Below, in pieces: positions 14,234 through 59,766 of a DNA stretch of 64,000 nucleotides. The notes under the pieces were generated by a model, which saw only the letters and a program-made list of their open reading frames with translations, did not search any database and was not told the origin of the DNA. Numbering within the stretch: position 1 is the first letter of the stretch; every line of letters begins with the position of its first letter. A program made the position numbers and the translations under genes. Origin of the DNA: a virus (taxonomy: Duplodnaviria; Caudoviricetes); the IMG/VR virus record IMGVR_UViG_3300050821_004020, positions 1 through 64,000 of that record, one strand, 5' to 3'.

Positions 14234-14463
14234 TATTCACACCTCGGATCAGTGAACGTGAAAGTCCCGTCGATCCTATTATCGTCATACCCTTCTCCAA
14301 GAAATTCATCGCCGCCCTCGGTGGCCTCAACCCACTTCTCGAAAGCCGCCTCTTCATCAACCGGAATAAAATAATGGGAATTATATACTTTACTGCCGAA
14401 AACTTTTTCAACATTTTTCATCCTTTGGTCCTCCGCTTGCACAAGTACTAGAACTGATTGGAG

Positions 14464-15267
14464 TTACGATTTTCTCCACCTATTGCTCTGTCGAAGAATC
14501 TTCGCGGCGTATTCTTCCTGTCGTTTTTTATTTTCTTCTACAGGCAAAATAGCGAAGGCACCTTGTTTAGCTTCGAATTCTAAGAGCCTTTTGGCACCCC
14601 ACGTCTTTTCTTTTTTGAGTGCTTTTTGTGCTGCGTCTAGTCGAGACCAATCCTTCAAGAATATGAATCGCTTCTTTGGTATGTCGGGCGTAACTATGAG
14701 CCGCTCTCCGTATTTCGGTTTGACAATTTCGTACTTTGTGGTTCCAAACTCGTTAAAAAATCGTTTTCTGCTGACTCTTTTACCATCTAACCACCACGTT
14801 GAACCGTCTGGCTGTGCATCTTCTACTTGTAACCAATTTGCAGCTAGATAAGTATTTCCAGTATGGCCTACTTCGCGGTCGGCATAGGTGATAGCCGAAT
14901 CAAAATTAGCAGTCTTGAAGAGCAGTCGCGTACTGTGAGCTAAAAGACTGCTCGTAGCCCATAGATGGCCGGGAATCCCGACCATGCGAACCAATTCAAT
15001 CGGCTCAAAACCCGCTGCTCTCATTCTTTTTTGGACTGATATAGAACGAGGAACACCCCAAACAGTGCACCCCTCGTCGTGCCCGAAACATAATTGCGCC
15101 GTTCGTACCGCCCCCAAATAGTGGTGTTGAAGAAGTTCATTCGCTTTTTTCAAAGAAATAACTTCCACGCGGGGAGATTTTTGGAGCGAGAAGGTCGGAG
15201 TCGAACCGCCGTCACCGATTGGAATCGGTTGTTTTACCGTTAAACTATTCCCGCATAGCTCGCTCAT
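14464..15267 (-). CDS. mom: Mom-like adenine-modifying enzyme (GNAT fold)
   Basis: HHYL, IELVRM, TSSLL, ITYAD...GHTGNTYLAANW motifs typical of the Mom family; AGGAG RBS. Confidence 0.8.
   Translation of the reverse strand: MSELCGNSLTVKQPIPIGDGGSTPTFSLQKSPRVEVISLKKANELLQHHYLGAVRTAQLCFGHDEGCTVWGVPRSISVQKRMRAAGFEPIELVRMVGIPGHLWATSSLLAHSTRLLFKTANFDSAITYADREVGHTGNTYLAANWLQVEDAQPDGSTWWLDGKRVSRKRFFNEFGTTKYEIVKPKYGERLIVTPDIPKKRFIFLKDWSRLDAAQKALKKEKTWGAKRLLEFEAKQGAFAILPVEENKKRQEEYAAKILRQSNRWRKS
15182..15254 (-). ncRNA. tRNA-Gly(TCC)-like cloverleaf embedded in the mom 5' coding region
   Basis: Acceptor GCGGGAA/TTCTCGC, T discriminator, CCA; D stem GTTT/AAAC; ACCGA-TTCCAA-TCGGT; GGCGG-TTCGACT-CCG(A)CC. 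Confidence 0.75.
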
Positions 15268-15423
15268 CGTGGCATCTCCTGAGCGAGTGAACCCGCATCA
15301 AACCAAGTCTTTCCGCCTTTCAACTGTTCGTAGGTAATTCGTGCGCCAGTTACTAAGTGCGCTCCTTCGGAAGTCAAGTATATAATTCCCAAATAATCAT
15401 GTCCAGATTCATCTGACATAATT

Positions 15424-15822
15424 CTAAATCGTGTCATCTTCGTCTTCTCCCCATGCCCTTTCTAATATTTCTGCCCAGAGTGTTTGTTTTATATCGGCGT
15501 CGTGATTAGCTTTATATTTCATTTCCGGTTCAAAGATCACATCCTCGTCAATTCGGATTCCCCGCGTGATCAAAAACGTGATGTCTTCCCAGTTCAAGTG
15601 AAGCCTGTTGTAGTCAGCGGGCTTGATAACCTTAGCAGCCAACGCCTCTCTGAAGGCCGCTCGTTGTTCTAAATCATGAGCGTAGTGCCAATCCTGATGG
15701 GGCTCCCGCTGAAGCCTAAGGCCGTTCTCTGTCCATGCGCTTACATTAAACTTGCAACGCGGGCACTGCCAATGATATTTAGGGCCAAAATCTCCTGGTG
15801 CGGTAAGCTCTCCATAAGCCAC
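15424..15822 (-). CDS. Hypothetical protein with CxxC
   Basis: GGGGG RBS; ORF in operon. Confidence 0.5.
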   Translation of the reverse strand: MAYGELTAPGDFGPKYHWQCPRCKFNVSAWTENGLRLQREPHQDWHYAHDLEQRAAFREALAAKVIKPADYNRLHLNWEDITFLITRGIRIDEDVIFEPEMKYKANHDADIKQTLWAEILERAWGEDEDDTI

Positions 15823-15830
15823 GGTGCCCC

Positions 15831-16388
15831 CTAGTGATAGATCGCCGGCAACGGTGACGGGTAAGGAAAATTAGCTCTGTTGATCCAGCCGTCCAGAAAT
15901 CGCTGATTGGACGGATTCAAATCTACAAGTCCATGATAGAAGCTGATCCATTCCGCACGGTACTGCGCGGCTACGATTTTGGGATCTTTCTGGCTGAGTT
16001 CAGCTAGCGTCACACCACCCAGGACACCGTCTGGATCCACCCCAAGGACTCGTTGAAGCGCCTTGACTGCTGTAGGGATGTTCCGGTTAACGGACCAGCT
16101 CAGCACTAGCGCGGCAATTTGATCGTCTGTAATTCTGTCCCCGTTGATGTGGCGCCAGAATTCTTCGTCGTAAAATATCTTTGCGCGATTAATGGCCAGG
16201 AAAGTGGTGCATGCACTCGCATCCCAAAAATTTGGGTTTGCCAATAACGGCAGCGTGCCAAAATTTTTGCTGGTGATGCCAAGCCTGGTGAGGCCGGCAC
16301 CGTCTCCCAAGTTCACAACCCGAGCTGGGACTTGCTTGTCATCTTCCTGATAAAGAAGCCACTCAACTATGGGCTCAAAGTTAGCCAC
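15831..16388 (-). CDS. Endolysin, glycoside hydrolase family 108 with peptidoglycan-binding domain
   Basis: GTG start; LLYQED..NLGDGAGLTRLGIT; ALQRVLGVDPDGVLG; RFLDGWINRA. Confidence 0.85.
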   Translation of the reverse strand: MANFEPIVEWLLYQEDDKQVPARVVNLGDGAGLTRLGITSKNFGTLPLLANPNFWDASACTTFLAINRAKIFYDEEFWRHINGDRITDDQIAALVLSWSVNRNIPTAVKALQRVLGVDPDGVLGGVTLAELSQKDPKIVAAQYRAEWISFYHGLVDLNPSNQRFLDGWINRANFPYPSPLPAIYH

Positions 16389-16647
16389 GTTTCTCTCCCT
16401 TGCAGTAGGCGCAGATGGGGACGCGCATCTTTTCGTACTGAGGACCCACTCGCATTTCAAAAATCGTCTCCCGCGCTCCACAGCCCTTGCACTGCGGTTC
16501 TTCAGCCACGAGCATTCCCTGTCTACTAAGCTTGATCCTTTCATTCGTTACGTTGTTGTATATAACTCCGGTACCATCAACGAACGTGTGGATGCGGTAC
16601 GAGGTCCAACCGGGTATTTTATCTCCGTTCAATAACATGGTGCTCCC

Positions 16648-53486: not shown

Positions 53487-53562
53487 GGGGCTGTAGCTCA
53501 TTCAGGAGAGCGCATCGCTTGCACCGATGAGGCGTCCGGAGCAAAGCCGGATAGCTCCACCA
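53487..53562 (+). tRNA. trnA: tRNA-Ala(TGC)
   Basis: GGGGCTG acceptor with G3:U70, CT-TGC-AC, CCA. Confidence 0.88.
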
Positions 53563-56761: not shown

Positions 56762-56835
56762 GCGATGTTGGTATAGTGGTAGAACGACACCTTGCCAAGG
56801 TGTAGGCGCGGTTTCGATTACCGCACGTCGCTCCA
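56762..56835 (+). tRNA. trnG: tRNA-Gly(GCC)
   Basis: ACACC-TTGCCAA-GGTGT, T discriminator, CCA. Confidence 0.9.
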
Positions 56836-56838
56836 GTT

Positions 56839-56951
56839 TGTCCGGTAGCTCAGATGGTTAGAGCGCGATCAGCAAGCCCGCTCATTCAGGTCATTCCTGA
56901 ATTGCAAGGCCCAAGTGGTCGAGGTCACGGGTTCGAATCCCGTCCGGCAAA
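56839..56951 (+). ncRNA. tRNA-like RNA with 46-nt insertion in the anticodon loop; no encoded CCA
   Basis: TAGCTCAGATGGTTAGAGC D arm, CGATC/GGTCG anticodon stem, AGGTC variable loop, ACGGG-TTCGAAT-CCCGT. Confidence 0.7.
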
Positions 56952-57285: not shown

Positions 57286-57359
57286 GCGGTGTTGATGTAA
57301 CGGTAGCATCGCAGTTTTCCAAACTGCTCGTCTCGGTTCGAATCCGTGACGCCGCTCCA
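57286..57359 (+). tRNA. trnG: tRNA-Gly(TCC)
   Basis: GCAGT-TTTCCAA-ACTGC, T discriminator, CCA. Confidence 0.88.
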
Positions 57360-59252: not shown

Positions 59253-59532
59253 TTAGGTGGACTGGATCATCGCGGGCGCAAGCCTGAGGAACTTCAGGAC
59301 ATCACTATACACAGCACCGTGGAAGTTGCGGGCCGGGTAACCGGACGGGTAAGGCCATCTTGCGGAGAATAGCCAGTCTAATCTACGCACATTCAAGGGT
59401 GGGCACTCCATGCTGGATGCAATCTCAAATAGGGCTGGAGCGCGTATAGCGTTATGATAGCCGGGTTGAGAGCTTAGACGGATGATGGTCGGGTCGCAAG
59501 GCTTACTAAATCCTGGGTATAGGTTCACCTAA
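59253..59532 (+). ncRNA. rnpB: RNase P RNA (compact, type-A-like)
   Basis: P1 TTAGGTGGAC/GTTCACCTAA, P2 GATCATC/GATGGTC, P3 with GCAA loop, GAGGAACTTCAGGAC (CR-I), P4 CAGGA/TCCTG, P15 TCTCAA/TTGAGA, TTAGACGGAT, ACTAAATCCTGGGTATA (CR-V). Confidence 0.82.
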
Positions 59533-59541
59533 TAATTTTAA

Positions 59542-59688: not shown

Positions 59689-59766
59689 GACGATGTAGCT
59701 CAGTGGCAGAGCACAACCACTTAAGTGTGATTGAGGCCGTCGGTTCGAATCCGACTATCGTCTACA
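59689..59766 (+). ncRNA. tRNA-like RNA with aberrant 20-nt anticodon arm, no CCA
   Basis: GACGATG/TATCGTC acceptor, canonical D and T arms, CAACCACTTAAGTGTGATTG arm. Confidence 0.6.

Follow-up and report, generated by a model that had tools for sequence, protein, structure and literature searches.

The DNA analysed here (hereafter, the window) is a 64,000-nt stretch of a virus assigned to Caudoviricetes, positions 1 to 64,000 of IMG/VR record IMGVR_UViG_3300050821_004020. It contains a single Mom-family gene, and an element that resembles tRNA-Gly overlaps this gene on the same strand. The gene and its immediate surroundings comprise the following features.

15264..15437, minus strand: upstream ORF of 57 aa, whose TGA stop and the mom start codon share the letters ATGA
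15276..15280, minus strand: Shine-Dalgarno sequence AGGAG, 8 nt upstream of the ATG, not part of the tRNA fold
14464..15267, minus strand: Mom-family gene, 267 aa, with start ATG at 15267-15265 and a GNAT core from about residue 31 (15177)
15178..15267, minus strand: mom codons 1-30, the N-terminal tail of Mom, predicted to be disordered (AlphaFold2); the letters of codons 5-29 are, as argued below, dictated by the tRNA-like RNA

Residues 33-204 of the gene product are matched by the Pfam Mom family (PF25680) with 36.8 bits, the cut-off being 27.1. A phmmer search of the PDB with the single window protein returned nothing, and Mu Mom (8bv8_A) was reached by profile only, the A2 profile matching it with an E-value of 8e-8. 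With a residue numbering offset derived from the S124A crystal sequence of Mu Mom, the counterparts of Mu H58, Y59, R111, S124, D149, R151 and Y159 are H49, Y50, R94, S106, D130, R131 and Y140, all of them invariant in A2 except R131. In a Mom relative found in run X4, a different metagenome, 23 of the 25 sites that differ from the window are third codon positions. The window Mom appears to be active, and modification of DNA by it to 6-NcmdA is predicted. An AlphaFold2 model (m528cb042cce5) gave mean pLDDT values of 38, 48 and 58 for residues 1-30 and values above 90 from residue 31. The ATGA overlap is consistent with translational coupling of mom to the 57-aa ORF and with a single operon. 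A family search with the product of that ORF gave no match, and a promoter and terminator scan returned one promoter-like site (15405-15377, minus strand), fewer than in shuffled sequences. The neighbours of mom in the window are replication and lysis-type genes.

The tRNA-like element itself can be divided as follows.

15182..15254, minus strand: tRNA-Gly-like RNA, 73 nt including U73 and an encoded CCA, identical with codons 5-29 of the mom ORF
15248..15254, minus strand: 5' strand of the acceptor stem, GCGGGAA, which pairs with 15186-15192 and includes G1:C72, C2:G71 and G3:C70
between acceptor stem and D arm: U8 and A9, read from the sequence
15231..15245, minus strand: D arm GUUU / AACGGUA / AAAC, with G18 and G19 in the loop, from the cmscan alignment
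15214..15229, minus strand: anticodon-like hairpin ACCGA-UUCCAA-UCGGU, 5 bp and a 6-nt loop, which displays UCC
15193..15210, minus strand: T arm GGCGG-UUCGACU-CCG(A)CC, translated as Gly-Gly-Ser-Thr-Pro-Thr
15182..15192, minus strand: 3' strand of the acceptor stem, UUCUCGC (15186-15192), U73 (15185) and the encoded CCA (15182-15184), read from the sequence

ARAGORN reports 15182..15254 (minus strand) as 'tRNA-???' with a two-base anticodon 'cc', i.e., a 6-nt loop, and the Rfam tRNA model RF00005 covers 15186..15254 (minus strand) with a marginal score of 30.5 bits against a gathering score of 29. A sequence-only reading of this DNA had proposed a 73-nt tRNA fold in codons 5-29 or so of a mom-like ORF, and both programs call it; the acceptor stem, U73, CCA, D arm, anticodon-like loop and T loop that it listed can all be read in the sequence. 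The two irregularities that it described, a 6-nt anticodon loop and a bulged A in the T stem, were also seen, and both recur as traits of the family described below. The element departs from a canonical decoding tRNA in three respects. Its anticodon loop is UUCCAA (6 nt) instead of a 7-nt loop with U33 and a three-base anticodon; the bulged A (15195, between positions 63 and 64) interrupts what would be a continuous 5-bp T stem; and the variable region, which was absent from that earlier description, is only 3 nt long instead of 4-5 nt. In the minimum-energy fold of the anticodon-like hairpin the stem gains a pair, to 6 bp, and the loop closes to 4 nt, UCCA. Taken as a single sequence, the element has a folding energy that is not above chance (z -1.26), and its minimum-energy structure is not the cloverleaf, a result that speaks neither for nor against a tRNA; the support is comparative, from the family model and the covariation described below. 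The identity set used by bacterial glycyl-tRNA synthetase (GlyRS), i.e., G1:C72, C2:G71, (G3:C70), U73, C35 and C36 (PMC7826273), is fully readable in the element.

Two normal tRNA-Gly genes, tRNA-Gly(GCC) at 56762-56835 and tRNA-Gly(UCC) at 57286-57359, are located by ARAGORN about 37 kb away, in a 33-gene tRNA cluster, as had been noted before. They share with the element the acceptor identity GCG...CGC, U73, CCA and the overall fold. Unlike the element, they have canonical 7-nt loops and a T stem without a bulge, overlap no gene, and reach 51-58 bits with the Rfam model, compared to 30.5 for the element.

A family of Mom-linked elements

Relatives of the window Mom were obtained from a protein database, a metagenome scan and scans with DNA patterns. 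In a search of viral contigs, an 18-nt T-arm pattern that includes the bulge matched at least 119 contigs. At about 105 of the 123 pattern sites, a match to a Mom-core HMM, which had been built without the tRNA-derived peptide, directly adjoined the site in the same orientation, on one side or the other; several of the remaining sites lie near contig ends. The element occupies either the 5' end of mom, as in the window, or the 3' end, and sometimes it does not overlap mom at all. In the 3' class, the mom ORF either reads through the element or stops at a TAG or TAA in the D arm. When cellular genomes were searched with the T-arm pattern, 108 of the 120 matches were due to chance, being neither tRNA-like nor accompanied by Mom; ten were tRNA-like, with seven of seven acceptor pairs and a stem starting with GCG, and a Mom gene was found within 2 kb in eight of these ten. 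Since about 140 chance matches are estimated in the 596 Gb searched, raw counts of cellular matches are meaningless without the acceptor-stem filter.

Loci retrieved by protein search gave a similar picture. The element is present at six of nine such loci; no element was seen in the examined DNA of L004, L006 and L127. The N-terminal peptide of the window Mom is shared by 15 of 30 protein homologues, and of 30 close Mom homologues, 14 have no tRNA-derived N-terminus. One protein, P0030, is only about 34% identical to the window Mom overall, yet its N-terminus is almost letter-for-letter that of the window, a pattern expected if the DNA there were held by a constraint other than that on the protein. 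Rfam tRNA matches were found at the 5' ends of the Mom genes of L001, L003, L005 and L007, all with the bulged A, and the bulge is also kept in relatives that came from the protein search (L002, L003 and the second element of L005). A family covariance model, R1, was built with the window sequence in its seed, so the score of the window element (70.4 bits, E 1.9e-16) is partly a matter of construction. Elements that were not in the seed (those of L002, L003 and L129, and the second element of L005) scored 61-77 bits. Of the canonical tRNAs of the window, the two tRNA-Gly genes came out on top with R1 (49.9 and 44.6 bits). At the DNA level, positions 14300-15900 had no match among INPHARED phages, and no confirmed relative emerged when viral contigs were scanned with the single protein or genome contigs with an alignment.

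Selection on the fold was assessed with 83 distinct family sequences. RNAalifold returned the cloverleaf, including the bulge, with compensatory changes in 12 of 19 pairs, and 97% of the cells at paired positions are paired. Changes on both sides of a pair were observed in 354 cells; shuffled alignments gave 93 +/- 11, with no count as high as 354 in 500 shuffles, and slid controls gave no more than 103. All four pairs of the D stem show both-side changes across the family. In the acceptor stem, pairs G1:C72 and C2:G71 never vary, 73 of the 83 sequences have G3:C70, and pairs 4-7 covary. Covariation of the T stem cannot be judged, because this stem was fixed by the search pattern. The element of the window and that of L007 differ at seven positions, six of which form three compensatory pairs.

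The positions that would be read by a glycyl-tRNA synthetase are also kept across the family. The element starts with GCG in 95 of 102 members, U73 is found in 87 of 90 Mom-linked members (and in 50 of 50 members of the 3' class), and the CCA is encoded in 33 of the 38 members of the 5' class. The tip of the hairpin is NCC in 89 of 90 members (UCC in 66, ACC in 19). The minimum-energy anticodon loops have 3-6 nt in 87 of 90 members and never 7 nt, and the 6-nt loop of the window is thus a family trait rather than damage. The positions conserved in the family are the bacterial GlyRS identity set, and the features needed for decoding are lost. The glycine identity features that had been read from the window alone are in this way borne out by conservation across the family, and by the ranking of tRNA-Gly first among the canonical tRNAs of the window by R1.

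Coding and structure in the same nucleotides

Members of the family in which the element is embedded in the 5' end of mom differ from 3' members in how their lengths vary. A spacing of 44, 47 or 50 separates the 5' end of the tRNA from its T arm in each of the 38 5'-embedded members, whereas among 3' members this spacing is unrestricted within 40-49 (Fisher p 2e-10). When only non-modal lengths are counted, the figures are 7/0 for 5'-embedded and 3/30 for 3' members (p 6e-6). Frame 0 is free of stops over the tRNA body in 38 of 38 5'-embedded members, compared to 8 of 20 members in which this frame is not used (p 1.4e-7). In nearly all 5'-embedded members, an in-frame ATG is found at position 15, in the D loop, or else 3-12 nt upstream of the tRNA; for the D-loop ATG, GGAGG of the acceptor strand supplies the ribosome-binding site.

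The peptide encoded over the stems is not conserved. Because this peptide is free and the tail is predicted to be disordered, translation demands of the segment only that the frame be open and contain no stops. We conclude, from the comparisons above and from the modelled structure of the tail, that it is the RNA that dictates the letters of codons 5-29. Judged in the same way, segment 15182-15254 (minus strand) really is of dual use, as coding sequence and as a structured RNA.

The sequence-only reading had suggested that the 5' ends of mom homologues be aligned and examined for covariation. Homologues keep the element, and a GGS-x-P-T peptide does track the T arm; the stems covary, and the peptide over them is free to vary. 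Preservation of the peptide with loss of pairing, which would have spoken against that reading, is the reverse of what was found, since it is the pairing that is kept rather than the peptide. The idea of a dual-coding unit has thereby gained direct comparative support from the start-codon survey, the in-phase indels and the avoidance of stops. The interpretation offered at the time is supported by the sequences now compared; its further proposals, namely excision, glycylation, use of the RNA by Mom (as a donor or as a decoy) and a switch operated by RNase P, are treated below as conjecture.

A candidate glycine carrier for Mom

An element of this kind has been seen before. McMurdie et al. (2011) described a 76-bp tRNA-Gly-like 'pseudo-tRNA' in the first 150 bp of a mom homologue in the ssrA islands of Dehalococcoides, treating it as an oddity of annotation and as a target for primers (PMC3146451). 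No function was proposed, since the donor used by Mom was then unknown. There, too, a full tRNA-Gly-like cloverleaf lies within the 5' end of a mom homologue (about 270 aa), and it is conserved from one island to the next; the window, by contrast, comes from a soil phage of lytic type that encodes 33 tRNAs, and not from an integrative island. Compared by description, the Dehalococcoides pseudo-tRNA likely belongs to the same RNA family.

The transfer of glycine by Mom from a charged tRNA to DNA was shown only in 2023-2026, and the donor has been seen as a borrowed host resource. Silva et al. (2026) report that Mu Mom moves glycine from Gly-tRNAGly to N6 of adenine in double-stranded DNA, that any host tRNAGly isoacceptor will do, and that the enzyme probably recognises the acceptor end; tRNA-like genes go unmentioned there, the donor being treated as a resource of the host (PMC13219725). 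The donor named in the sequence-only reading, glycyl-tRNA, was the correct one (PMC13219725). Mu Mom (PDB 8bv8) and the window protein share the PF25680 family, the active-site residues and, by prediction, a chemistry that needs a glycyl-tRNA donor. Mu carries no tRNA and uses the host pool, whereas in the window the gene itself encodes a deformed tRNA-Gly.

The closest functional analogue, though not one of the same lineage, is the Fem system of staphylococci. Non-proteogenic tRNAGly of Staphylococcus aureus serve FmhB, FemA and FemB (Rietmeyer et al., 2021; PMC7826273). The likeness is one of logic: these are extra tRNAGly, charged by GlyRS, which bind EF-Tu weakly and are reserved for a non-translational transferase. 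Discrimination in the staphylococcal RNAs also involves the D and T arms (PMC7826273). Unlike the element, they are free-standing, have 7-nt anticodon loops and continuous T stems, and take part in peptidoglycan synthesis; in architecture and context the element differs from NP1-NP3 and does not belong with them. Our literature search found no paper that links an embedded tRNA with the dependence of Mom on tRNA. New here are the in-phase indel test, the stop-avoidance test, the start-codon survey and the observation of a module swap.

Because Mu Mom takes its glycine from Gly-tRNAGly, the best reading of the element, and one we hold to be rather probable, is that of a private, non-decoding glycine carrier placed inside the enzyme's own message; we infer that it is processed, charged, excluded from translation and used by Mom. 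As mRNA, the transcript would be translated from ATG 15267 through the element, giving a disordered tail of about 30 residues followed by the apparently active GNAT core. As RNA, the cloverleaf would keep the features that GlyRS reads (G1:C72, C2:G71, G3:C70, U73, C35/C36 and CCA) and would have given up those that decoding needs, having a 4-6-nt anticodon loop, a 3-nt variable region and a bulged A in the T stem read by EF-Tu. RNase P and 3' trimming would free the RNA from the operon transcript, host GlyRS would glycylate it, and EF-Tu and the ribosome would pass it over. Mom would then take the glycine to form N6-glycyl-adenine in phage DNA, which would rearrange to 6-NcmdA and block restriction. 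The family, in short, probably gives glycine to Mom rather than to the ribosome. Evasion of EF-Tu is argued from the position of the bulge: it lies between pairs 51-63 and 50-64, in a region of the T stem that sets affinity for EF-Tu (Sanderson and Uhlenbeck, cited in PMC7826273), and may for this reason lower binding.

Excision of the carrier would strip the ribosome-binding site and the start codon from the mom message, so that each transcript would become enzyme or carrier, never both. Such an either/or fate would hold a toxic enzyme at a low level while its donor is abundant. A more specific version, which we put forward tentatively and consider somewhat doubtful, is that RNase P, possibly with the phage's own RNA (59254-59535), decides for each transcript between Mom protein and a ribosome-blind Gly-tRNA, thereby fixing the ratio of donor to enzyme, and that the bulge makes the RNA orthogonal to translation.

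The window does contain a compact RNase P RNA-like gene (59254..59535), which scores 95.7 bits, just below the Rfam cut-off of 100, and its presence makes the idea of processing more concrete. A private donor is not strictly required, since Mu Mom uses all host isoacceptors and the window has two normal tRNA-Gly genes. Two further considerations weigh against a carrier: C35 and C36, when held in a 4-6-nt loop, may be poorly read by GlyRS, and excision that destroys the mom message could equally mean that the element acts only in cis. The close homologues that have no tRNA-derived N-terminus, the loci L004, L006 and L127, the unremarkable folding energy and the narrow margin of the Rfam score are also to be set against it.

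If the element is a private carrier, many Mom systems would consist of two components, the enzyme and its carrier, and one stretch of DNA would encode both the N-terminus of an enzyme and that enzyme's own co-substrate carrier. This would be a second natural case, after staphylococcal Fem, of a tRNA partitioned from translation, and a clear case of one segment under the double constraint of coding for protein and folding as a structured RNA, visible in triplet indels and stop avoidance. In practice, enzyme and carrier could serve as a small orthogonal pair in tools for modifying DNA, and the element, which tRNA finders at present overlook or call a pseudo-tRNA, could flag Mom systems during annotation.

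Among other explanations, the one that survives best, though we think it unlikely, is that the fold acts only in cis on the mom message, either as an operator or decoy bound by Mom through its pocket for the tRNA acceptor end, or as a site of processing or decay that limits a toxic enzyme. The element lies inside the message, which makes excision and translation mutually exclusive, and Mu mom is described as tightly repressed because it is toxic (PMC3378877). In L001, L005, L031 and L056, ribosomes bind at the acceptor GGAGG and start at the D-loop ATG, both of which would be masked by folding; in many members of the 3' class the stop codon lies beyond the tRNA, and a cut by RNase P would leave a message without a stop. 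However, an operator needs no full GlyRS identity set, yet U73 is found in every one of the 3'-class members and the tip reads NCC with a single exception. A position at either end of the gene, sometimes without overlap, is ill-suited to a translational operator, and in the window the ribosome-binding site and the ATG are outside the fold.

That there is no dual coding is, in our view, improbable. The RNA would in this case lie in a 5' untranslated leader, Mom would be made from an in-frame GTG (15168, residue 34; tRNA-relative position +87), and the open frame would be incidental. Such a start would agree with a Pfam Mom match that begins at residue 33 and with the predicted disorder of residues 1-30, and frame 0 is intrinsically stop-poor, being open in 8 of the 20 members that do not use it. 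Yet this GTG has no Shine-Dalgarno sequence, while ATG 15267 has AGGAG at 8 nt and the ATGA overlap. L007 has an identical leader from about -22 up to the tRNA, and leader and ATG are conserved in both L007 and P0029 despite diverged Mom cores. Already with the codon after CCA the protein enters the Mom core, of which a Lys-Ser-Pro alignable with Mu Mom forms part, and no room is left for a separate initiation region; initiation at the GTG would also drop this conserved Lys-Ser-Pro. Indels in multiples of three only, together with an open frame 0, in all 38 5'-embedded members also speak against it. Finally, seven relatives (L005, L007, L012, L031, L046, L058 and L061) have no in-frame start beyond tRNA position 27, and a true start further downstream, which had been named as a possible objection to dual coding, is therefore unavailable in them.

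We give still less weight, and very little in all, to the proposal that the element is a module of recombination or mobility (an integrase target, a homing site or a cassette junction) whose tRNA shape reflects its origin and not its use. The same leader and tRNA module does sit on three divergent Mom cores (those of the window, P0029 and P0030; 34-40% identity), the close Mom relative from run X4 stops matching exactly at junction 15168, and the Dehalococcoides case lies inside integration modules (PMC3146451). Those islands, however, integrate at ssrA and not at the tRNA-like element (PMC3146451), there is no integrase near mom in the window, and a recombination site needs sequence identity, not compensatory changes in three stems.

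The last alternative, a decaying tRNA-Gly pseudogene or a chance cloverleaf within a gene caller's long ORF, could draw on the marginal Rfam score, the z of -1.26 and the three departures from a canonical tRNA, but it is in effect refuted by the conservation of the family, with covariation, on more than 100 contigs, the recurrence of the 'defects' as family traits and the linkage to mom. By comparison of these sequences, the element is neither chance nor decay, and the decay that the sequence-only reading had itself allowed for is contradicted by compensatory changes and in-phase indels.

Probable exchange of leader and tRNA modules between Mom cores

A leader starting at about -22 (and including the ATG), together with the tRNA module that follows it, is near-identical in the window (positions 15182-15276), in L007 (positions 316-410), the contig encoding the Mom homologue P0030, and in the homologue P0029. 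Despite this, the Mom cores of the three, i.e., the GNAT parts that follow the tRNA-derived N-terminus, share just 34-40% identity. The reverse pattern is seen in contig L001, whose Mom is ~87% identical, yet whose leader and anticodon arm differ. Taken together, the conserved module joined to diverged cores and the opposite arrangement in L001 suggest that modules have been swapped at the junction between the CCA and the core.

The tRNA-derived N-terminus is missing from about half of close Mom homologues (P0013-P0026); these proteins contain a conserved Tyr-x-x-Ser-Gly-Leu-x-Lys-Ser-Pro motif at the start instead. No match to R1, the covariance model of the Mom-linked tRNA-Gly-like RNA family, was found across the whole 4.7 kb of L127, a locus that codes for a P0019-type protein. 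In contig L005, tandem mom genes are flanked by two tRNA-Gly-like elements:

L005 3002-3074: element 1, within the 5' end of mom 1
L005 3627-3698: element 2, starting where mom 1 ends and leading to a second Mom-core ORF

Overlap of the fold with translation signals and the Mom ORF

In L001 (2591-2666), L005, L031, and L056, the ribosome-binding site GGAGG is part of the acceptor strand GCGGAGG, and the sole upstream in-frame ATG (position 15) lies within the D-loop AAUGG. With both signals inside the tRNA, folding of the latter and translation initiation should be in competition at these loci. In ca. 35 contigs of the 3' class, where the element is at the 3' end of mom (e.g., L011, L016, L021, L027), the Mom ORF continues in the same frame across the tRNA-like element, and its stop codon falls immediately past the CCA. 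An RNase P cut at the 3' element would produce a mom message without a stop codon.

RNase P RNA-like gene and unusual tRNAs of the window

59254-59535, + strand: compact RNase P RNA-like gene within the tRNA cluster (Rfam RNaseP_bact_a)
59689-59763, + strand: tRNA with an 8-nt anticodon loop and four-base anticodon 'taag' (ARAGORN)
56839-56950, + strand: 112-nt tRNA match, 36.1 bits, directly 3' of tRNA-Gly(GCC) (Rfam)
53487-53559, + strand: tRNA, 46 bits, absent from the ARAGORN list (Rfam)

The RNase P RNA-like gene, presumably the 'rnpB finding' of the sequence-only reading, scored 95.7 bits (E 6.7e-28) and was visible only in the E-value mode of Rfam, being missed at the gathering threshold (score 100); the complete 367-position model is covered within just 282 nt. 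The tRNA with the four-base anticodon (51.6 bits, Rfam) is a candidate for a suppressor-type tRNA related to frameshifting or to stop codons. The 112-nt match perhaps contains an insert.

Gene neighbourhood of mom

15424-15822, - strand: small zinc-finger-like protein, directly upstream of the mom region
15831-16544, - strand: endolysin-like protein (domain matches to PG_binding_3 and, weakly, GH108)

These immediate upstream neighbours of mom form with it one densely packed strand block. Genes for replication (DNA polymerase, helicase, primase-like) come further along this strand.
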